Of a DNA stretch of 64,000 nucleotides, positions 1,168 through 13,653 are shown one piece after another. The stretch's first letter is position 1. Each line of letters begins with the position of its first letter. Origin of the DNA: a virus; IMG/VR virus record IMGVR_UViG_3300032799_000664, positions 1 through 64,000 of that record; one strand, given 5' to 3'. Made by a program: the position numbers and the translations under genes. The notes under the pieces were generated by a model. That model was not told the origin of the DNA and ran no database searches. It saw only the letters and a list, made by a program, of their open reading frames with translations.

Positions 1168-1494
1168 CTATTTCTCGAACACGTCGCGGTACGGCCCCAG
1201 CTTCTTCAGCTGGCGCAACCCCTCCACGCTCACGACACAGCCGCTGTCGAGGTCATCGATGAACAGCTCGCTCTGCCAGCGGAACGGGTCGCAGTAACAG
1301 CAGTGGTCACTGCGACCGCCGAAGAACGCCGCGCCGTTCGTGTTGGGACAGGCGAAGACGGTGAAGCTCGTCGTGGAGCCCGGCACCAGGAACGTCACCC
1401 GGTCACAGGAGATGCACCCCGCGCTGTGCGAAGGATGGTCCCGGTAGTGGCCGGCGAAGCACGACAGGCTGAGCGGGCAGCGGTCGCAGGTCAT
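1168..1494 (-). CDS. 8-Cys scaffold family member 1
   Basis: MTCDRCPLSLSCFAG...CISC...C...CCYC. Confidence 0.8.
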   Translation of the reverse strand: MTCDRCPLSLSCFAGHYRDHPSHSAGCISCDRVTFLVPGSTTSFTVFACPNTNGAAFFGGRSDHCCYCDPFRWQSELFIDDLDSGCVVSVEGLRQLKKLGPYRDVFEK

Positions 1495-1499
1495 CGCCA

Positions 1500-2240
1500 G
1501 CCTTGTACCACGACAACACGTGACGTTACGTAGCGCTGCACTACAACTCTACGACATAAAACTACAGGTAGGCAAGACCCGCCGCGCGCCCCCTCACCTG
1601 CACCGGCCCCCAGGTGTGCGAACAGTGGAGACTGATTGGCCCCTGACTTGCTGCGGTGAACTCCGCTGCGATGAGCTTAGCTGCCTAGAATCACTGAACA
1701 ACGACACTAACTCACACTGAGGCAATTTACCTACGTTTGCAGAGAATCAGCGTTCTCTTCGTTATTACTGTATGGCGTCCCCTACGAAATCTCCAATCCT
1801 AATTGCACTGCTTCTTCTATATTCATCTCATCTCTTATACTTATCTCTTAGAAGTTATTGTATAGCTGAGCTGCGCGGTGGGGAGACCTCACACACACGC
1901 GACCCTTTGCTTCACTGTGTTCCATCGGTCAGGTGCTATGATTCCTTATATTCACTTATCAATACAACCTCTTACTATCCCTTTGCTGTACGGTGTTCGG
2001 GCGGCGCGGTTGGTGAAAGTGGACGATACCTACACTGCATACATTTACCTCTATCTCCTACTCCGCTATGTCTTCGATTTCTCGTTTATAGGTCCTTCTA
2101 TATGTAGTCTCGCCACCGTTGAGCGCCCCCGAACGTCGTTTTTTACTCCTGTGACGTTGATTCTACTTTACTTTCGGTGTCCAATCGCTTTTAATGTTGG
2201 TGACCGCGATTCTCAACACCCTCAGATTCGTTGCCCAAGG
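1500..2240. other. AT-rich, pyrimidine-skewed non-coding gap between divergent genes (candidate origin or promoter region)
   Basis: Runs such as TATATTCATCTCATCTCTTATACTTATCTCTTAG in an otherwise GC-rich genome; no credible ORF. Confidence 0.5.
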
Positions 2241-2247
2241 AGTCCAG

Positions 2248-4998
2248 ATGCGTGATTATTCTCGCTTTCCCAGCGACACACTCACAAGTGTCTCCTCGCA
2301 CACGCGTGCATTGTACGGACTACTTCAGCACGTGCGCAACGCCAGCTACGCCATCCCTGAGACCGGGCCGACCGGACGCTGGCTCTCTGCCGAGCGCAAC
2401 CTGGGCCTCATCTACTGGCCCCACCTCCTCGAGAACCCGCGCAGCTGGCGCAAGCTCAGCGCGGCGCTCTACATGCCGGTCGAGATGGAGCGCGACCTGC
2501 TTCAGCAAGGCTTCCTGTTCGCGCCCACTGCCGCGCTGGCCGACGAAGCGCAGGCGTGGTGGCTCCAGCACCTCCGCAAGCGGGCTGAGGCGCTCCTGGG
2601 GCCGCTGCAGCTGCCGGGGAACGCGCCCGAGGCTATCAGTGCCATCCACACCTACTCCGCCCTGGACCCCGCGTTGCACGGCGACCCGGCGTTGCACGAC
2701 CCGGACAACTACACCGTCTTCCGCCGCATCTCCGATCACCAGGAGAAATTCCTCCAGCGGGTCATCGTCCGGCCGCCGCTCGATCTCAGCGAGTTCCTGC
2801 CACACAGCACGGCGCTGCCGGCGCCCCTGGTGGCGCTCTTCTACGCCTGGCACACTCTCTGCGAGCGGCACGTCTTGAACTTCGACCCGCACGAGATCGG
2901 CATCGACTTCGTGCGCACCGGCTGCTTCATCGTCAACTGGCGGCGTTTCGCCGCATCGCCGTACTGGCCCCGCCACCTGCGGCAGCTCGATGCGCTCGAA
3001 CGCAATGAGAGCGTCGAGATCGCTCGGCGCCGGCTGTACCAACGGCTGGGGTTGCGGGAAGGCCCGCTGCACCGGGGCCGCACCACGTCGTTCTTCACCG
3101 ACTGTGTGCCGGCGCCGTCGGACGTTGATCGCATGCTCCGCGAGTTGCCGAAGTACTGCAGCATCGCTGCGGGGCTGCCGGCGCTCGATGTAGTGCAAGT
3201 GCGGCGCCTCTTCGGTCGCGAGTTGCCGTCTCCGGGTCTCGAGTTGGCTCTCGAAAGCCGCTTGCTCGACTTCAACGAGCATGGGCTGCCCCAGAACTGC
3301 ACGCTTATCGATCCGCTGATGCTGTTGCGAGAACCGGGTCTCTTCAAAGGCGCCTGGCACCTCCAACATCTCCAGCTACAACAGCAGCGCGTGCGCCAGC
3401 GCATTCGCCGGCGGGTCGAGACTGAACAGCTCGGCCATCCCCCGACGCCGTCGCAGGTCCACGTACGGGTGCTGCGCTTCCGCCCCGCGGATTGGCTCGA
3501 TGACTTCGTCGAAGAGCCGTTGCGCACGCAGTTGAAGCTGCAGCGCAATCAACCCGGCACGGACCAGGCGCCGTGTCCGTGGTGGTTCGACAACGACCAC
3601 GTCGAGAACATCTACGCCGTGCGCAGCCGCGGGCAGTGGACTTTCACCCGCCCCCCGAGCTTGGCTGACGCCCCTGACTGTGAGCGCTTCGTCTGGCGCA
3701 AGGTGCTGCTCGAACGCCACCTCTTCGAGAGCGAGCATCTCATGGCGGCGCTGGGCAGTGACGCGGAGCGCGTCGCCTACGTGCGCCAGATGGACCGCGC
3801 TGAAGTACTGCAAGAAGCCACTGACCAGCAGCTGCTGGCCTACGCCAAGGCGGGCGTGCGCAGCGCCTATGAGGTCACGGGTAAGATCAGCACGTATCAG
3901 CGTCGATTGCTGGGTAAGCAGCGCGCTGATGCGCACAACCGTGAGACCGGCATGGACGGCCGCATGTGGTACCACCACGGGGTCGTGCGAGCGCCGGAGC
4001 AGCAGATGCCCAACCCCAACGACTACCGGCGCATCGTCCACGTGGTCATCCCCGACGGCAAAGAACAGACCTCGGACCCGACCATCGAAGAACGCCACTT
4101 CTTCACCGAGCTGGCCATCGCCAGCTTCGAACAGCACGCCCGTTCTAGCATGCGGGCGTTGCAGGACACCGAAGCTGATGGACTCCCCAGCGCGGGTGAC
4201 GCCGTCCAAGCTGCTGTGAACAGCACCGAGTCTGTGCATCGCGATGAAGATCGCGCCTATCGCGAGAACTATCAGGGCATGGCCGCCTACGTGCTGGCCT
4301 GGGCACGCTTCTGTCGCCACGTGCTGTGCTATCCCGAAACCGCTGATGAAGGCGGTGTCGGTCCGCTGGGAGTCTGGCCGTTGGCCGCAGCTACAGTGAC
4401 GCCGGAGCCAGAATGCGTCGTTCTCGGTGACCTGCCGGCCATGCCCGATGAAGAAGTCGAGCGTCAGCGTTGGACACCATGGCAAGACCACACGCTGCTG
4501 ACCAGCTACCAGCAGTTCCCAGCGCTGGACCCGACGATCCGCAGTAATCTGGCGCGCTACCTGGGCCGCGATGACGATACCTGGACCCCGCGGCTGCGGA
4601 CCTTGCGGCGCTACCTGGCACCGTTGTTCCCCCCGTCCCACGCGCTCATCGCCGGCCTGGAGCGTTGTCTCATCACCACCATCGGTGAAGTCCAGCACGT
4701 CGCCCACTCGCTGCCACTCGACGATGCCACGGCGCGCCGCTTGATTCTCAGCTACGGCCTCGCCCGGGCGCTGAAGCTGCACCAGCAGTTCGGCTTCAAT
4801 CCGCGGGTGCCGCCCCCGCCGCTGCGCTTCGCGCGGCGACTACCCGACGCCGCTTTGCTCGCGATCGAGCTGCCCCGCGACTACACCCGCCGCTCCTGGC
4901 GGCCCATCGTCATCGCCCTGGCCAAGGCGGCGGCGAAGCTGCCAGCTAAACAAACGCCGGCGTCTCGTGAAGACGACGCCGACGCCGCCACCAACTGA
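2248..4998 (+). CDS. large orphan protein (~916 aa), function unknown
   Basis: Long ORF; AAGGAG before ATG 2248 (MRDYSRFP); only substantial plus-strand gene in the left arm. Confidence 0.8.
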   Translation: MRDYSRFPSDTLTSVSSHTRALYGLLQHVRNASYAIPETGPTGRWLSAERNLGLIYWPHLLENPRSWRKLSAALYMPVEMERDLLQQGFLFAPTAALADEAQAWWLQHLRKRAEALLGPLQLPGNAPEAISAIHTYSALDPALHGDPALHDPDNYTVFRRISDHQEKFLQRVIVRPPLDLSEFLPHSTALPAPLVALFYAWHTLCERHVLNFDPHEIGIDFVRTGCFIVNWRRFAASPYWPRHLRQLDALERNESVEIARRRLYQRLGLREGPLHRGRTTSFFTDCVPAPSDVDRMLRELPKYCSIAAGLPALDVVQVRRLFGRELPSPGLELALESRLLDFNEHGLPQNCTLIDPLMLLREPGLFKGAWHLQHLQLQQQRVRQRIRRRVETEQLGHPPTPSQVHVRVLRFRPADWLDDFVEEPLRTQLKLQRNQPGTDQAPCPWWFDNDHVENIYAVRSRGQWTFTRPPSLADAPDCERFVWRKVLLERHLFESEHLMAALGSDAERVAYVRQMDRAEVLQEATDQQLLAYAKAGVRSAYEVTGKISTYQRRLLGKQRADAHNRETGMDGRMWYHHGVVRAPEQQMPNPNDYRRIVHVVIPDGKEQTSDPTIEERHFFTELAIASFEQHARSSMRALQDTEADGLPSAGDAVQAAVNSTESVHRDEDRAYRENYQGMAAYVLAWARFCRHVLCYPETADEGGVGPLGVWPLAAATVTPEPECVVLGDLPAMPDEEVERQRWTPWQDHTLLTSYQQFPALDPTIRSNLARYLGRDDDTWTPRLRTLRRYLAPLFPPSHALIAGLERCLITTIGEVQHVAHSLPLDDATARRLILSYGLARALKLHQQFGFNPRVPPPPLRFARRLPDAALLAIELPRDYTRRSWRPIVIALAKAAAKLPAKQTPASREDDADAATN

Positions 4999-5005
4999 AG
5001 CCCCG

Positions 5006-5248
5006 TCAGGCCGACGGCGTGTCGCGCGGCCGCACCGGGAACGGCCGCAGCTGCTCGAAATGCTGGGCGCTCGAGCGCAGCACCTCGCCGTTGGAGTAGC
5101 GCACCAGCACGTCGCCACCGATGCACAACTCGGGCTCACCCCGGTCGTCGACTTCGACGACTTCACCCTCGACGGTCATGACCTCGACGACCGCGGTGTC
5201 GCCGTCCCATTCTGTGATGCAGTACGTCCCACCTTGCCGCACCAGCAT
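5006..5248 (-). CDS. hypothetical protein
   Basis: AAAGGAG RBS before ATG; converges on the large plus-strand gene. Confidence 0.6.
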   Translation of the reverse strand: MLVRQGGTYCITEWDGDTAVVEVMTVEGEVVEVDDRGEPELCIGGDVLVRYSNGEVLRSSAQHFEQLRPFPVRPRDTPSA

Positions 5249-5310
5249 TGCGCGCTCCTTTCGTGAGCGTGGGGTTCGGGAACATCTTCTTATACCGAGA
5301 CTGCGGCGCG

Positions 5311-5325
5311 CTTTACGACGTAAAG
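5311..5325. promoter_or_regulatory. palindrome CTTTAC-GAC-GTAAAG (candidate operator)
   Basis: One of 7 near-identical copies; intergenic, next to a promoter-like motif. Confidence 0.6.
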
Positions 5326-5359
5326 AACACGCGTCGAGAGGGTCGACGCGCGTTGAGGT

Positions 5360-5575
5360 TCAGAAGCGCAGTGGCCGCCAGGGCTCGAGGTAGGGCACTT
5401 CGTGGAGTTCGCGGGGCTCATCTTCGCAGTGCCCTTCGTCGAGGCCATACTGCATGGCCTCTATCCAGGTGAGGGCATCGCTGCGCGACTCCCCGTAGGC
5501 CAGTCGATGATGCTGCAGCGGGCTGCCGAGATGATCGTAGCCGTAGCGGAAAAGAGGCACTTGATAGTAGGGCAT
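5360..5575 (-). CDS. hypothetical protein
   Basis: MPYYQVPL start placed just after the stop of the upstream gene. Confidence 0.5.
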   Translation of the reverse strand: MPYYQVPLFRYGYDHLGSPLQHHRLAYGESRSDALTWIEAMQYGLDEGHCEDEPRELHEVPYLEPWRPLRF

Positions 5576-5576
5576 C

Positions 5577-5969
5577 TCAGCTGCCCTGGCAGTTGTTGCA
5601 GCGTTCCCAACCGTCGTACTCGGTGTTGAAGCCATCGGTGGCGCCGCACCAGCTGCATCCCGCCACTCCGAAGAAGGCGTTGCACACCTGGCCGAAGTGC
5701 TCGAATGGCATCGTCTCGGGATCGACGCCCGCCGCGTTGCAGTACGCGATGTAGAACTCGATGGCGTTGTCGGGGTACTTCGCCACTTCGGAGTGGGCGA
5801 ACCAGTTGGCGAAGTTGGGCCGCAGTGGCACTTCGCGCAGCACCCACGCTGCGCCCATGAGTTTCTGGAACTCTCGGTACGCCTTCTCGAGATCGTCGGG
5901 GACGGGGGTCGCCAACGGAATCGAGTGCGGACCCGCGTGGAAGAAGTGCTTCAGCAATCGCACCTTCAT
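5577..5969 (-). CDS. hypothetical protein with C-terminal Zn ribbon
   Basis: AAGGAG RBS, MKVRLLKH start; CSWC...CNNC. Confidence 0.7.
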   Translation of the reverse strand: MKVRLLKHFFHAGPHSIPLATPVPDDLEKAYREFQKLMGAAWVLREVPLRPNFANWFAHSEVAKYPDNAIEFYIAYCNAAGVDPETMPFEHFGQVCNAFFGVAGCSWCGATDGFNTEYDGWERCNNCQGS

Positions 5970-6002
5970 GGCGTTCTCCTTTCTCTTCCTGATACCTAAA
6001 AA

Positions 6003-6640
6003 GCCGCGCGTCTTCGGCCCTCTCGTTCCAAAGGCGCGCGGCACCGCCACCCCGCGGTGAAAGGAGAAGCCCGCGGGGTAGCGGCCCTGCAACCGTTCCT
6101 GCGTTAGCGCGTAGCAGGAGCTCCTGCGGCCGGAAGCGGCAGCCCACTGGAGGCCGAAGGAGCTCCGCGCGGAGCGTTATAGGGCGCCCGACTCGAACCG
6201 CGGACCTCCACAGGAGGTCCGTAGGTTCGAGCCGGCGGACTTCAGCGCTGGCGGCGAAGCCAGAAGCTGCTGAAGTCCGAGCCCGGGCATGTCGTCAGGC
6301 AAGCGTGCAGCCGCCTGGTCGCTGTAGCAGCGACTGAGTGCGCACTTCAGGCACTCACGAACGGTGTGCGTTCCTACGTTTCCGACGGGTGACCCGGATG
6401 TAGAACGTGCTGCTCCTGCGTTGGTTGGCGCCCGTGAGACCGAGTCGGCGAGAGGCAGTACCCTCGCCGACTGGGTCTCGCAGGCAACCAGCCGGACTGG
6501 ATCTGGGGGTAGCGTAGCGGTCCCCCAGATCGAGTCTGGACTCGGCATCACGACGACGTCATGGTCGCCGCGTCGACGTGGCGTCGACACCGTCTTGGTG
6601 ATGCTCGAGCAGCGTTGTCGTTGTCAGCGATGTCCATCGC
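6003..6640. ncRNA. candidate large structured RNA (consecutive hairpins), family unknown
   Basis: At least 10 back-to-back inverted repeats, e.g. 6188-6209/6213-6235, 6236-6246/6269-6279, 6434-6452/6463-6481, 6500-6509/6522-6531; no convincing CDS. Confidence 0.55.
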
Positions 6641-6686
6641 CCACGCCCGCTCCGCGCTGCGTGGTCTGATGATCATCTCCGGTGAT

Positions 6687-6959
6687 TCAAGGCAGTACTA
6701 TGGGCCGTTGCCGCGACCGGGCATAGGCCGCGGGGTCACACTCGGGACAGGTCCACAGTTCATCGTACCAAGCTGATGTGGCAGTCCACGGGCCGTTCGG
6801 TGGACAGGTCAGCATGTAAGGCATCAGCTTCGTTTTGCGACGTTCAGCGATTGGCAGAAAGATGACACCTCGACCGCAACCACCTTGGCAGTAAGTGAAG
6901 CTGTGCAGAACTTCGCCGGCGAAGCAGGTGAGCGACAGCGGGCACTGGTCACAGGTCAT
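6687..6959 (-). CDS. 8-Cys scaffold family member 2
   Basis: MTCDQCPLSLTCFAG...CQGGC...C...CPEC. Confidence 0.8.
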   Translation of the reverse strand: MTCDQCPLSLTCFAGEVLHSFTYCQGGCGRGVIFLPIAERRKTKLMPYMLTCPPNGPWTATSAWYDELWTCPECDPAAYARSRQRPIVLP

Positions 6960-6965
6960 GGCTTG

Positions 6966-7637
6966 TCAACCGTGCCGCAACGTCATGGTCTGTTCGATGC
7001 GGTTAGCTTCACGTACGCCCCAAGCTAAGACTTGGCGCCACTTCTCTTCGCTGAGGGAATACGCGTCCATGAACGGTTCTCGGCGTATGTGTAACCGGTG
7101 GGCGACGTCCTGCAACGCGCGCCAATCATCGTTGACGGCGAACAGCAGCCGCTGTGGCATACGATAGGTACGCGGTCCGTGAGGACGAATCACGTAGTCG
7201 AAGACTGGTCCCAAGCGAAGATTGGTGACGGTCTCCACTGCCGGTGGCGCTACGCTCCGTGGAGTCCCCGCGGCGGTGCTGAGGGGTGCGCCAAGTCGCA
7301 CGCGCTCTTCCGCTGACATATCTGCTAGGGTTTTCACGTGCCCCGGCGCGCGCACCGGGTCCAGCGCCGCGGTGATGCGCTGGGCGATGACGAACGCCGG
7401 GTCGGCGCCGACTCCGAGACCTATCCCACGACGTTCAGACATGGTCGGCGGTCGAACCGCGATCTCGACATCAGTGAAGTGGCCCGTTTCCGGGTCGCGG
7501 GTATCTTCGCAGACCCGCACGTTGATTTTATTGCTCGGACCAACGCGTCCCAGGCTGGCACCACCGTGGTGCAATCGACCCCGTAGCTTTCGAATCGACT
7601 TTCGAGTCTTCGGTGTTCGTTTATACGTGCGCCTCAT
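6966..7637 (-). CDS. hypothetical protein, basic N-terminus
   Basis: MRRTYKRT start is ATGA-coupled to member 3. Confidence 0.65.
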   Translation of the reverse strand: MRRTYKRTPKTRKSIRKLRGRLHHGGASLGRVGPSNKINVRVCEDTRDPETGHFTDVEIAVRPPTMSERRGIGLGVGADPAFVIAQRITAALDPVRAPGHVKTLADMSAEERVRLGAPLSTAAGTPRSVAPPAVETVTNLRLGPVFDYVIRPHGPRTYRMPQRLLFAVNDDWRALQDVAHRLHIRREPFMDAYSLSEEKWRQVLAWGVREANRIEQTMTLRHG

Positions 7638-7939
7638 TTCGCTTCTTTCTCGAAGATGCGATCCATCGTTGAGCGTTGCCCTTGGGCGCGGCACTCCTGA
7701 CAGAGCACCGAGTACTCGTAGATCTCGTGCATCGGGTTCGGCATGACGGTGACCGACCCGTACGGCAGGTGCAGTGCCCGCTCCAGCTGTGCCAGATTGC
7801 CGCAGCCATGCCGCGTCACTTGATTCCAATTCTGGTCGTAGAGCACGACACTGCCGCAGTGGTAGCAGATCCCGAGATCGAGGAGCGCGACGTGACCACT
7901 GAAGCACGGCAGCGAGATGGGGCAGCGATCACAGGTCAT
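7634..7939 (-). CDS. 8-Cys scaffold family member 3
   Basis: MTCDRCPISLPCFSG...CYHC...C...CQEC; start reassigned to ATG 7939 (ATGA overlap). Confidence 0.8.
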   Translation of the reverse strand: MTCDRCPISLPCFSGHVALLDLGICYHCGSVVLYDQNWNQVTRHGCGNLAQLERALHLPYGSVTVMPNPMHEIYEYSVLCQECRAQGQRSTMDRIFEKEAK

Positions 7940-8232
7940 GGGGACGGCGAGAGCACCCGCACCTGCTTCGCGGGCACCACGAACGTCCCCTGATCGGGAC
8001 GCCAGTAGCCGGCGCAAGGGAAGTCGAGCAGCCAATGCGTGGCCCAGCGGTAGGAGACTGGGTCGCGATTCAAGTTCTCGCCGTTGATCGGGCCGGGCGC
8101 GCGGACTACGGCAGCGCCGGCGACCAGCAGGATGTCGGCGACGAACGTTCCCTCGTGGCCGCAGTAGCGCACGATGGCGCCGACGGCGCCCTGCTTCAGC
8201 CGCGGGGAGAACTTGGGTTTCTTAGCGGTCAT
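7936..8232 (-). CDS. hypothetical protein
   Basis: 98-aa ORF in the coupled chain. Confidence 0.65.
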   Translation of the reverse strand: MTAKKPKFSPRLKQGAVGAIVRYCGHEGTFVADILLVAGAAVVRAPGPINGENLNRDPVSYRWATHWLLDFPCAGYWRPDQGTFVVPAKQVRVLSPSP

Positions 8233-8238
8233 GAATCG

Positions 8239-8499
8239 TCACTCCAGTACTTCGACGTGGTTCTTCTCCCAGCCGAAGAGCTCGCTGGGGTGACAACAGA
8301 CTGGGCACGCCGTCAGCTCATTGATACAGTTCCGGCGCAGAACGTCACAGCGCAGCACCAGGTAGTCGCCATAGGGCGGGTGGGCGCGAATCTGGTCGTG
8401 GAGCTGGATGACCACGCGGTGACAGTTGACACAGACGCTGTAGAGGTGCAGCCGGTCACCGAAGCAGCACAGGCTCACCGGACAGCGATCACAGGTCAC
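8239..8499 (-). CDS. 8-Cys scaffold family member 4
   Basis: GTG start, TCDRCPVSLCCFG...CVNC...C...CPVC; GAGGA RBS. Confidence 0.75.
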   Translation of the reverse strand: MTCDRCPVSLCCFGDRLHLYSVCVNCHRVVIQLHDQIRAHPPYGDYLVLRCDVLRRNCINELTACPVCCHPSELFGWEKNHVEVLE

Positions 8500-8761
8500 G
8501 GAGATCCTCGATGTCGGTTTGATCGACGTGGAGCAGCCACTTCTGCCGCACGTCCATGCACCGGTGACAACCGTTCCAAGCGTCGCCCAGCTCAGCGTCG
8601 CGCTCCGGTGGACAGCGCAGCAGTACGACGCGACCTCGGCCCGTCTCGGGGTTGTCCGGCAATACCACCACCGTGCAACCGCAGACGCGGCACTTTCCCC
8701 GGGAGGTAGGCAGCTGGTCACCCAAGCAGAGCAGTGCGATGGGACACTGGTCGCAGGTCAC
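8489..8761 (-). CDS. 8-Cys scaffold family member 5
   Basis: GTG start, TCDQCPIALLCLG...CRVC...C...CHRC. Confidence 0.75.
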   Translation of the reverse strand: MTCDQCPIALLCLGDQLPTSRGKCRVCGCTVVVLPDNPETGRGRVVLLRCPPERDAELGDAWNGCHRCMDVRQKWLLHVDQTDIEDLRDL

Positions 8762-9033
8762 GACGCGGGCACCGCCGTGAACTCGTAGTCCGCGCCGCGG
8801 CCTTCCTTCTGGGCCATCGCCAGGAACTTGGTGAGGCAGGCGGGGCACAGGCTCATCGCGCCGCACTGCCCACCTTTCTCGCTGGGTTTCAGCTCCTTGA
8901 CGATGACGACCGGTGGGTCTTCGCAGCGCTCCATCTGTCGAGGTCCGAGAGTCATGAAAGACCCGCCGCGCCACTCGGCCTGGCAGCGCTTGGGGTCAGG
9001 CGGCGTCAGCTTGGCCTTCTTGGTTTTGGTCAT
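8758..9033 (-). CDS. hypothetical Cys-containing protein
   Basis: MTKTKKAK start, AGGAG RBS, ATGA-coupled. Confidence 0.65.
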   Translation of the reverse strand: MTKTKKAKLTPPDPKRCQAEWRGGSFMTLGPRQMERCEDPPVVIVKELKPSEKGGQCGAMSLCPACLTKFLAMAQKEGRGADYEFTAVPAS

Positions 9034-11759: not shown

Positions 11760-12434
11760 CTACTCCTTGGTGAGGACTTCGATCTTGCCGACGAGGATCT
11801 CGACGCTCGCCGCCACGAACGGTTCCTCGTTCTTCTTCTGCATCTCCTGCAGCACTGCGGGCCAGTTGTCGATGATGAGCTGGTAGGTCGGCGTGGTGCC
11901 GTGGCGTTCCTTCTGGATGCGCATGAGGAGCTTCGTGACTAGCCCGCCGCACAGGTTGACGGTGAGGTCGGTCTCGCCGCGGCCGCGCTTCTCCTGCAAC
12001 GTGACCGAGAAGTCGGTGTCATCGTCGGTATTCGAATCGTCGATCAACGTGGTCAGGTCGCTGATCTTGGTGCTGCGCAACCCTTTGATGGCGCCCGGGT
12101 CGACCTTGAGCTTCTTGAGCCAGTCGACGAATTCCTTCTTGCCGTTGGTGGCGGCGGTGCACCAGTCGCCTCCACTGGACCACTTGCCGCTGCGACGGCC
12201 GTAGTGGTTCTCGCCCGGCATGTACTGCGGGTTGAGGGCACGCTGGAGCTCGATGCCCTCAGGGTACTCCACATCGGCGACCAGGTAGGTCATGCTGGTC
12301 GGCTCGAGCGCGGTGTACGCTCCGCCGGCGTACGATGCATTGCTGTCTCGGAAGATGCGCTTGATGCCGAGCTTCTGCAGCTCCTTGATGAAATCGGCGA
12401 GGCTCTGGAAGGTGATGCGGGTCACGGGGTTCAT
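11760..12434 (-). CDS. hypothetical protein (224 aa)
   Basis: AAAGGA RBS, strong GC3 bias. Confidence 0.8.
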   Translation of the reverse strand: MNPVTRITFQSLADFIKELQKLGIKRIFRDSNASYAGGAYTALEPTSMTYLVADVEYPEGIELQRALNPQYMPGENHYGRRSGKWSSGGDWCTAATNGKKEFVDWLKKLKVDPGAIKGLRSTKISDLTTLIDDSNTDDDTDFSVTLQEKRGRGETDLTVNLCGGLVTKLLMRIQKERHGTTPTYQLIIDNWPAVLQEMQKKNEEPFVAASVEILVGKIEVLTKE

Positions 12435-12503
12435 GCGGGGTCCTTTCGTGGTGCTGCGTTGATCTGCGTGATTCTCTTCTCGCTCCTGAGTTCGTTACGA
12501 GCA

Positions 12504-12836
12504 GGCGCCTCCGGCCTGACCTCGAGATGAGGCAGCCCACATCTCGAGGTTGGCCGGAGGTCGCCAGTGAGCCGACGAGGTGCGGCCCAGATGAGGCAGC
12601 CACCTCAGAATGAGGTGGCAGCCTCATCGGGTGAGCTTGTCCCACGGGGGCAAGCTCAAGCACCGTCGATTCCTCATCTGCGAGCGTGAGCCCGCCATAG
12701 CGACGTGACGTCGCCTGCGTGCGCACGCTGTGGGCACGCTCGAGCGAGTTCTTTACGGGGTAAAGCAGAGCCGCGACGCCCGTAGCCCATGCCCACCGCC
12801 CCTCTTCCGCCGCGGTGAGCATGGACTACGTCGTCG
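12504..12836. ncRNA. candidate structured RNA or leader
   Basis: Long hairpin 12504-12565, branched stems 12571-12670, further stems to 12836; 13-nt direct repeat AGATGAGGCAGCC; contains palindrome copy 12751-12765. Confidence 0.5.
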
Positions 12837-12843
12837 TCCGTCA

Positions 12844-13653
12844 CTATGGGAGCACTGCGCACTGCGCGCTGGTACACACCCGACCCGGGCTGGACCAGTA
12901 GTTGTAGGCCTGGCACTGGCACCAGGCTTTCTGCGTCAGGATGAGCGGGTGCTCGGAGCTATGACTGATCAGCATCGTGTTGCGGTAGTCGGCGCCGCTG
13001 GGCGGGAATACGCGACAGTTACAACTGACCATCAGGTCAGCGGCGTTGAGGCAGTACACTGTGAGGACGCCCGGACCGGCACCGCTGGCGGGAATGTCGA
13101 CGCAACCACTGCCCGGGGCACCGTAGATGTCGTCGCGCGAGAACCCCGGGCCAGTGAGACCGATGGGTCCTTGGGGACCCGTCGGTCCCAGCGGTCCCGT
13201 CGGTCCCTGTGATCCCTGGGCGCCGGTGACGCCGGTGGCACCGGTGGCGCCGGTGGCCCCGGTGGCCCCGGTGACGCCGGTGTCGCCCTTCGGCCCAGCG
13301 GCGCCGGTGAGACCGATGGGTCCCACGGGACCCATCGGTCCCTGTGATCCCGGGGCGCCGGTGGCACCCACGGTCCCGGCGGGTCCCTGCAACCCTTGGG
13401 CGCCGGTAGCGCCGGTGGCGCCGTTGAGACCGACAGGTCCTTGCGGACCTGCCGGTCCTGTTGCTCCCGTCGGACCGGGGTCACCGACGCAGACGCAGTC
13501 GGCGCCGTTGCAGGTGACGACGATGCCACCGTCGCGGGTGGAGTTGCCCGCGTCGGTATCGGTGGGGCCGCCGGCGGTTTCACTGCCGCAGTTGGCGAAG
13601 AGGATGACCGTGAGCAGCGTCATCCAGCACTGCAGGACGTAGTTGCTGCGCAT
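12844..13653 (-). CDS. collagen-like (Gly-X-Y) putative lipoprotein with Cys-rich C-terminal domain
   Basis: AAAGGAG RBS; hydrophobic signal ending FANC; long uninterrupted G-X-Y run; C-terminal domain with 8 Cys. Confidence 0.85.

Follow-up and report, generated by a model that had tools for sequence, protein, structure and literature searches.

A string of separable hairpins between two genes of an uncultured sediment phage as a candidate intercistronic control RNA

In the early and late mRNAs of phage T7, and in the sib retroregulator of phage lambda, intercistronic hairpins serve as processing sites for RNase III, and an RNase III site in mRNA comprises a duplex of at least 20 bp, or roughly two helical turns. 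In phage T4, the ribosome-binding sites of e, soc and I-TevI are masked on read-through transcripts; lambdoid phages possess the antitermination RNA sites nut (boxA/boxB) and put; and enterobacteria carry clustered intergenic palindromes, the repetitive extragenic palindromic (REP) sequences and bacterial interspersed mosaic elements (BIME). On a larger scale, GOLLD and ROOL are described as large phage-borne RNAs in the part of bioRxiv 10.1101/2024.12.08.627333 drawn on here. We analysed a 64-kb window (the first 64 kb of the 130,445-base virus record IMGVR_UViG_3300032799_000664, the completeness of which is estimated at 71%) and describe in it a structured non-coding spacer at 5998–6679 on the minus strand. 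The spacer starts ~8 nt past the stop codon (6687–6689) of a gene for a Cys-rich protein and ends at a U-run ahead of the downstream gene, P0003 (ATG at 5969), both genes also lying on the minus strand. It is suggested here, with a probability of roughly 0.45, that the spacer is a cis-acting intercistronic control RNA of ~680 nt, read in the sense of the genes.

By analogy, the spacer would work most like the intercistronic control hairpins of phages (the RNase III sites of T7, lambda sib and nut), together with the read-through masking of ribosome-binding sites seen in T4. Like the T7 and sib hairpins, it presents related long hairpins between genes, on the sense strand of what would be a polycistronic phage mRNA, and the stems of its repeated core hairpins, predicted at 27–32 bp, are long enough for RNase III. 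It differs from T7 and sib in having several tandem hairpins spread over 680 nt, and from RNase III sites in the conserved apical loop of its cores, which RNase III is not known to require. As in T4, the predicted transcript carries, farther upstream, an exact complement of the ribosome-binding site of the gene that follows. Unlike in T4, the loop of a stable hairpin, 75 nt ahead of the site, provides this complement, and a terminator-like hairpin separates the two; pairing would therefore take the form of a loop-to-linear pseudoknot rather than of a simple hairpin. In a further contrast to T4, no internal promoter was found. The likeness to nut and put is a positional analogy only: a hairpin with a conserved loop and a conserved single-stranded motif stand on the nascent RNA, upstream of a terminator (a putative one in the spacer), at few sites per genome, but the hairpins of the spacer are six times longer, and the order and sequences of the parts differ.

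REP and BIME resemble the spacer in being GC-rich (rich in guanine plus cytosine) hairpins clustered past the 3' end of a gene. By contrast, the spacer is not a dispersed high-copy element, given that BLAST returned no further copy and that a covariance model of its core (R1, below) finds three cores in 130 kb. tRNA genes are often found near GOLLD and ROOL, whereas ARAGORN found none in the 64-kb window, and the spacer is without an Rfam match. As GOLLD and ROOL are presented in the part of the preprint used here, the spacer is like them in being a heavily paired, non-coding stretch of several hundred nt in a phage genome; unlike them, it has the form of beads on a string, with units gained and lost, and occurs in one phage group as far as searched. 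Judged by the searches made, it belongs to no Rfam 15 family and lacks those features of GOLLD and ROOL that were examined (Rfam match, tRNA neighbours).

The spacer is first of all an outlier in its folding. An earlier note on this DNA had reported a gene-free run of hairpins of ~640 nt, and that description was borne out. The 671 nt of 5990–6660 fold with -387.5 kcal/mol on the plus strand (z -9.2) and -390.1 kcal/mol on the minus strand (z -14.25), and in the comparison with shuffled sequence that the note had proposed, 0 of 20 shuffles folded as well on either strand. When 13 hairpin segments were folded singly, cut at or near the boundaries given in the note (its 11 features, with the three short hairpins split and 6627–6640 widened to 6625–6662), z was -4 or lower in eight, none of which was equalled by any of its 200 shuffles. 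The remaining five (6086–6184, 6296–6317, 6335–6357, 6366–6410 and 6625–6662) were weak, at z -0.7 to -2.9. A 200-nt sliding fold over all 130,445 bases of the record, regressed on GC content, gave three outlier zones, at 6001–6600, 12401–12750 and 13101–13400, of which the other two correspond to a second intergenic gap at 12.4–12.85 kb and to a collagen-like repeat gene. Within 5900–6750 there are 12 inverted-repeat pairs.

Comparison was made with four distinct versions of the locus in relatives (L002, L004, L006 and L007), and with difference tables for three contigs assembled from DNA sequencing runs. A locus search based on P0003 yielded one viral locus and four metagenome loci from 245 candidate stretches, one of the latter being the L002 contig again. 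No match was returned by blastn against 50,697 phage records or by exact 24-mer and 25-mer searches of genome contigs, and two exact patterns searched for in a viral contig collection matched the L002 contig alone. The nearest relative is the contig G001 (197,792 bases, completeness 100%), which represents the same region as loci L002, L003 and L005; cultured phages are all distant, the helicase reaching no more than 30.5% identity in tblastn. As far as these searches reach, the spacer appears confined to one group of sediment phages.

Within this group, the spacer is better conserved than its surroundings. Counting substitutions and small indels only, it is 94–98% identical to its relatives overall: its upstream part (6366–6679) has 94–96% identity to the window in those relatives that carry it, and the downstream part (5995–6365) differs by 1–5% substitutions. 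The corresponding nucleotide identities are 78–81% for P0003 and 59% for the Cys-rich gene. In an 11.7-kb contig from run X8, positions 5965–6648 are retained at ~93% (45 differences, 5 gaps), while both flanks fall below the 85% threshold. Conservation sets in at 6671; its distance from the upstream stop codon is 15 nt in the window, and 3 nt in L002, L004 and L007. In L006 homology begins at the position that corresponds to 6365, no farther than ~10 nt from where an unrelated gene stops. Both flanking genes (5577–5969 and 6687–6959) are fast-evolving, and the borders of the mosaic fall exactly at the ends of the spacer.

No protein accounts for this conservation. GC content by codon phase is flat in the frames of the gap (0.62–0.71), and third-position GC is 0.82–0.91 in three well-behaved nearby genes (P0003, a 934-aa gene and a 224-aa gene); the upstream Cys-rich gene is itself phase-flat (0.56/0.58/0.64). 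The longest open reading frame (ORF) of the gap, 137 aa at 6177–6590 on the minus strand, is shortened to 72 aa by 1-nt indels in L002 and L004. Indels among the relatives measure +1, +1, +2, -2, -28 and +244 nt, and Pfam gave nothing for either gap ORF. The stretch 5998–6679 is therefore non-coding, with no protein gene that has a conserved frame or a codon-position bias. Two smaller coding candidates were also rejected. An in-frame extension of P0003 to 171 aa from a TTG at 6092 has a stop as its second codon in L004 and L007, and a 29-codon ORF from an ATG at 6640 shows, as read from the alignment, four non-synonymous and two synonymous changes against L002 and is absent from L006.

Searches for known RNAs agreed with the note, which had seen no tRNA, tmRNA, RNase P or intron core motifs. 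At gathering score, Rfam 15, whose models cover GOLLD, ROOL, HEARO, OLE, RNase P, tmRNA, introns and riboswitches among others, gave 0 matches in the whole window and 0 in the loci of the four relatives; over 5800–6900 at E of 10 or below it gave seven, all well below gathering score and all plain hairpin look-alikes, the best being mir-9456 (23.2 bits against a gathering score of 80). ARAGORN likewise reported neither tRNA nor tmRNA genes in the 64-kb window. The spacer looks undescribed as judged against Rfam 15, no literature search for the motif having been made.

Alignment of the relatives divides the spacer into two units, a linker and a closing device. Unit 1 (6408–6679, minus strand) comprises the hairpins 6664–6641 and 6640–6627, a three-way structure at 6610–6540, the hairpin 6539–6492, and a first core copy, c1, with its tail. 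Core c1 (6416–6494) consists of a long hairpin at 6491–6425 (z -7.46) with the apex GGGUACUGCC, followed by the tail AACGCAGGAGC at 6422–6412. The whole of unit 1 is missing as a block from L006. In the hairpin 6664–6641, a 6-bp stem, CCACGC/GCGUGG, is invariant, and its 12–14-nt loop is wholly different in three versions found among the relatives and run contigs. Between the units lies a linker or remnant (6366–6411, minus strand), which carries a further tail motif, AACGUAGGAAC, at 6380–6370 and a weak predicted hairpin (z -1.45); homology to L006 begins just 3' of this motif.

Unit 2 (6092–6365, minus strand), present in all five sequences, comprises the hairpins 6357–6335, 6334–6318, 6317–6296, 6279–6236 and 6235–6188 and a second core copy, c2 (6093–6179), a long hairpin with the apex GUGGGCUGCC and the tail AACGCAGGAAC at 6105–6095. 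In L007 the hairpin 6279–6236 is trimmed by 28 nt, leaving a 5-bp mini-hairpin. The neighbouring hairpin 6235–6188 exists in three sequence versions, those of the window, of L006 and of X8. The L006 type (helix 19) differs by three double compensatory changes and one G-U pair, and the X8 type by 19 listed substitutions and four single-base indels, with ~20 pairs by a hand check that is provisional, 15 further differences being unlisted. L004 carries 244 extra nt between 6092 and the closing device, an insertion that folds alone with z -3.5. Units thus number one in L006, two in the window, L002 and L007, and three in L004, with the closing device unchanged in all. The long-range closing helices of the single-sequence fold were rejected as candidates, being lost in L004 and L007. 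On the evidence of these comparisons, the spacer is a string of separable hairpin units and not one globule of the GOLLD or ROOL kind; the note's proposal of a single large RNA of that kind did not hold, since units are gained, lost and trimmed, and the core recurs elsewhere.

To define the recurrent part, a covariance model (R1) was built from c2 alone (6179–6093 and its four orthologues) and run unfiltered over 76 kb. After c2 itself and its opposite-strand echo, the top ranks went to four further copies, all full length and all on the gene-sense strand: c4, in the L004 insertion (27.2 bits, E 0.001); c3, at 12570–12484 on the minus strand of the window (20.6 bits, E 0.027–0.044), the best non-self match in the record; c1, at 6494–6416 on the minus strand (16.9 bits, E 0.16); and c5, at ~101.1 kb of G001, where a third non-coding gap precedes a gene (15.9 bits, E 0.27). 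In the 130-kb record, R1 finds three cores only. In the model-fitted alignment of the copies, two-sided changes occur at 20 of 28 pairs, and 92.9% of cells pair, versus 67.6% in shuffles, none of 500 shuffles reaching that value. Folded singly, each of the five cores is predicted to form a hairpin of 27–32 bp with the apex GKGG(N)CU(G/A)CC, and the apex GKGG(N)CUGCC is retained across paralogous copies whose stems have wholly changed. The structure of the spacer is real, and its pairing is selected. We conclude from the comparison of copies that a core of ~85 nt (hairpin plus AACG..AGGA tail) recurs, and homology is claimed for this core only, not for the full units of 200–280 nt.

A second search, for the signature itself, led to the same two gaps. 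The loose apex (G[TG]G[GT], 0–2 bases, CTGCC) occurs at 31 places in the 130-kb record, and at four of them the tail AACG..AGGA follows within 140 nt. Each of these four is a minus-strand site inside one or other of the two structured gaps. The spacing from apex to tail in the three cores is 31, 32 and 34 nt (c1 31 nt, c3 34 nt). Taken by itself, the fuller tail motif AACGYAGGAAC, with at most one mismatch, is found at three places in the whole record, all inside the spacer and on the minus strand, and a fourth copy closes the L004 insertion. The count is unremarkable for the window (1.76 expected; 3 reached in 30 of 100 shuffles). A role for this motif as a genome-wide promoter was considered and rejected, 3 of 3 matches in 130 kb lying within the spacer. 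A possible likeness of the motif (6095–6105, 6370–6380 and 6412–6422) to helix 45 of 16S rRNA, close to the 3' terminus of that molecule, was not adopted; over 5800–6900, Rfam gave no rRNA match up to E 10. A sponge of the CsrA type was also dropped, with four AGGA counted by eye in the spacer (six up to the start of P0003) against ~2 expected by hand arithmetic.

BLAST of the spacer against the window and the loci returned only itself and its orthologues; at this level it occupies one place in its own record and is not a dispersed repeat like REP or miniature inverted-repeat transposable elements. The gap that holds c3 (12435–12843, 409 nt, minus strand) lies between the collagen-like gene, which ends at 12844, and the 224-aa gene; it folds with z -8.58 and ranks first among the folding outliers of the record. 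There c3, whose apex is again GUGGGCUGCC and whose tail follows 34 nt later, stands ~45 nt upstream of the 224-aa gene (start 12434). The third gap, of ~550 nt, precedes a 127-aa gene in G001 (L014:1246–1802, about 100.9–101.4 kb) and contains the weak core c5, with the apex GUGGUCUACC; no counterpart of this gap was found in the incomplete 130-kb record.

To determine the working strand, the fold of each strand (pair span at most 150 nt) was mapped onto the alignment of five sequences. On the minus strand, 242 pairs were counted and 98.2% of cells were paired, with 13 one-sided changes kept as wobble pairs, three two-sided changes, 10 pairs broken in some relative and 16 further pair types. 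The corresponding figures for the plus strand were 249 pairs, 96.5%, 3, 3, 18 and 6. The ratio of kept to broken pairs thus differs between the strands (13/10 for minus versus 3/18 for plus; Fisher p 0.005). Because wobble changes keep pairs mainly on the minus strand, the gene-sense strand is favoured, and these patterns make it most likely the working strand. The run contigs add 17 listed substitutions within pairs, of which five keep pairing on the minus strand only, two on the plus strand only (6053 and 6415) and two on both; a further two form one double change (6135/6148), and six break both strands.

These results run counter to the note's plus-strand transcript, antisense to the flanking genes. 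Its hand count of G-U pairs against A-C mismatches (9 to 3, in favour of plus) was not reproduced either, the minimum-energy folds containing 16–19 G-U pairs on the plus strand versus 21–22 on the minus strand. The covariation among homologues that it had proposed as a check was found in part: three double changes and 13 one-sided changes preserve pairs on the minus strand, but the events are few and ten pairs are broken.

The 3' end of the spacer is formed by two hairpins, H12 and H13, that make up the closing device. H12 (6085–6043, minus strand) has 15 bp, a folding energy of -33.5 kcal/mol (z -5.83) and a 13-nt loop at 6070–6058. Within this loop, UUCUCCUUUC (6068–6059) is complementary at every base to GAAAGGAGAA, the ribosome-binding site of P0003, which lies at 5983–5974 on the minus strand, 75 nt downstream of the loop and just ahead of the ATG (5969–5967). 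The two form an inverted repeat (I10) of 10 nt with 100% complementarity, and the UUCUCCUUUC 10-mer occurs just once on that strand in the 130-kb record. Their duplex is predicted at -17.3 kcal/mol, with predicted unpaired probabilities of 0.97 for the loop and 0.72 for the ribosome-binding site. In L007 a C-to-U change in the loop retains the pairing as G-U. As expected for masking of a ribosome-binding site, the complement would thus be on the same transcript and is predicted to be free to pair. The loop may also resemble the anti-Shine-Dalgarno tail.

H13 (6042–6003, minus strand; -27.8 kcal/mol, z -4.86) is followed directly by UUUUU at 6002–5998, and the foot of the hairpin and the U-run are invariant in all five sequences. 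From the U-run to the P0003 ribosome-binding site there are 14 nt. Together, H13 and the five U form a terminator-like end to the spacer, as judged from their sequence, in keeping with an aside of the earlier note that the leftmost hairpin and its T-run could be a terminator of the minus strand. In a contig from run X11, the match to the window ends at 6001 and is followed by 187 nt of unlike sequence; H13 therefore marks the end of the element.

Under the favoured reading, that of a cis-acting control RNA, the ~680-nt RNA would be made as the tail of the transcript of the upstream operon. Transcription from upstream is proposed because conservation sets in so soon after the upstream stop codon that a promoter would have no room, and because no signal for one was seen, the scan of 4800–8800 having returned no promoter-like site. 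H13 would end most transcripts. In RNA that reads through, the H12 loop would pair with the ribosome-binding site and restrain translation of P0003. The core hairpins may be sites that a factor of the phage or its host (an antitermination factor of the nut/put type, RNase III or another RNA-binding protein) recognises or processes, and this factor would set read-through, cleavage or stability. Of the elements of this reading, the data directly support the non-coding character, the selected pairing, the better standing of the minus strand, the repeated module of variable copy number and the complementarity of loop and site.

A bolder proposal, which we regard as possible but on balance doubtful, is that the repeated unit represents a new class of phage RNA signal: a hairpin of ~30 bp capped by GG-NCUR-CC, with an AACG..AGGA tail. 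Its apex would dock a dedicated factor of phage or host, as an antitermination or processing switch or, after release of the hairpin, as a protein sponge, and the number of units would tune fast-evolving accessory genes in sediment phages of ~200 kb. The reading of large uncultured phages mostly goes from gene to gene and overlooks what lies between; here the best-conserved 0.7 kb of a fast-evolving accessory region is RNA structure rather than protein, with no match in Rfam 15. Were the factor-binding signal true, it would offer a handle on how the expression of a hypervariable array of small proteins is timed or limited in such phages, and the long hairpin with its conserved cap would be a compact natural part for reporter use. 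If the spacer merely serves processing or stability, it is a tidy, ordinary case.

Several observations weigh against the cis-acting reading. The three double changes within the element all fall in one hairpin of one relative, pairs are broken even on the minus strand (the 10 counted above), and the hand-reconstructed X8 version of the hairpin 6188–6235 has one wobble for which only the plus strand allows pairing. Diversity is low, and because the five sequences are 94–98% alike, within-element covariation rests on few events. The cross-copy alignment was fitted to R1 and includes two rows that are reverse-strand echoes of c2, and R1 matches c1 and c5 only weakly (E 0.16 and 0.27). A simple consensus terminator scan of 4800–8800, limited to loops of 3–8 nt, returned 0 terminators. 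The anti-ribosome-site loop was not found at the other loci of the module, and the device is therefore specific to P0003; the core hairpins themselves lie 45–200 nt from the next start codon, farther than a simple translational operator would. In the one RNA run (X9) among 19 sequencing runs, one 34-nt piece matched at <90% identity in the coding flank and nothing matched the spacer. Finally, the two phages also share ~98% identity over the coding block 1451–5331; part of the conservation pattern is therefore due to mosaic exchange, and the high identity of the spacer could stem partly from mosaic recombination.

Foremost among the alternatives, and itself rather unlikely, is that the units encode stable RNAs that stand alone and act in trans (one of ~680 nt, two of ~300 nt, or processed hairpins), with the conserved apical loop as the surface that binds a protein or target and H13 as the end of the RNA gene. 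The conservation pattern would suit such genes, the spacer being far better conserved than either flanking gene even in its loops and linkers, and its halves behaving like separate genes in the mosaic pattern of the relatives. The X11 contig, in which the match stops at 6001 before 187 nt of unlike sequence, indicates that P0003 is not a constant neighbour and that the terminator marks the end of the unit. The apex is conserved over paralogous copies with fully changed stems, and large phage-borne RNAs do exist, GOLLD and ROOL being instances in the part of the preprint cited above. However, conservation begins too close to the upstream stop codon to leave an RNA gene space for its own promoter, nor did the scan return one; no multi-way junctions or long-range pairs are kept in the relatives, the long-range pairs being lost where L004 and L007 differ. 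In addition, the copy number ranges from 1 to 3 among close relatives, and the complementarity of loop and ribosome-binding site points to action in cis.

It is improbable that the spacer is a functionless run of palindromes that expands and contracts by duplication and recombination, with its identity due to recent exchange. Such a spacer would fit the gain and loss of units among close relatives, the ~98% identity of the coding block 1451–5331 and the small number of events behind the within-element covariation. It would not be expected to show paralogous copies in which 20 of 28 pairs have changed on both sides with pairing retained, wobble changes biased to one strand, or a hairpin (6188–6235) that pairs in all three of its sequence versions. 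Likewise, ~93% identity is kept in X8 where both flanks have diverged past 85%, and the spacer is not a dispersed repeat, BLAST revealing no other copy in the window or loci.

Hairpins acting in single-stranded DNA of the minus strand, as a signal for priming or single-strand initiation, recombination or packaging, are less probable again; they are retained as a minor alternative because the same strand bias would be expected of them, G-T pairs being tolerated on one strand of a DNA hairpin as G-U pairs are in RNA. The cluster of long, near-perfect inverted repeats would also suit such a signal. By contrast, the orientation matches that of the flanking genes at both loci of the record and at the one examined in a relative, and the U-run after the last hairpin and the complement of the ribosome-binding site are features at the level of RNA. 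The spacer, with a GC content of 0.65–0.68, contains no AT-rich unwinding region or iterons, and there are two loci in the record and three in the relative rather than a single origin-like site. Least likely of all is the note's own reading, one large plus-strand antisense RNA of the GOLLD or ROOL kind: the plus strand does fold far better than shuffles (z -9.2), and the substitutions at 6053 and 6415 and one X8 wobble in the hairpin 6188–6235 pair on it only, but it has 18 pairs broken to 3 wobble-kept (10 to 13 on the minus strand), the gene-sense strand alone carries the apex and tail signature and the R1 matches c1, c3, c4 and c5, no hairpin is followed by a plus-strand T-run, there is no promoter-like site, and Rfam gives no match to GOLLD, ROOL or another family up to E 10.

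The genes on either side belong to a poorly characterised neighbourhood. The upstream gene (6687–6959, minus strand) encodes the Cys-rich protein of 90 aa and is the last member of an array of paralogues; P0003 (5577–5969, minus strand) encodes 130 aa without a known family. Pfam assigned no family to any of nine neighbouring proteins, and PHROGs gave no match for P0003, the Cys-rich gene or the 934-aa gene. ESM Atlas gave no match above 0.82 for P0003, and a search for homologous proteins returned P0004 and P0005 as the sole matches besides the query. P0003 is followed at 5006–5635 on the minus strand by two small ORFan genes, of 91 and 80 aa, neither with a Pfam family. Past P0003, this minus-strand block runs head-on into the 934-aa gene, which has no Pfam family and stands alone on the plus strand.

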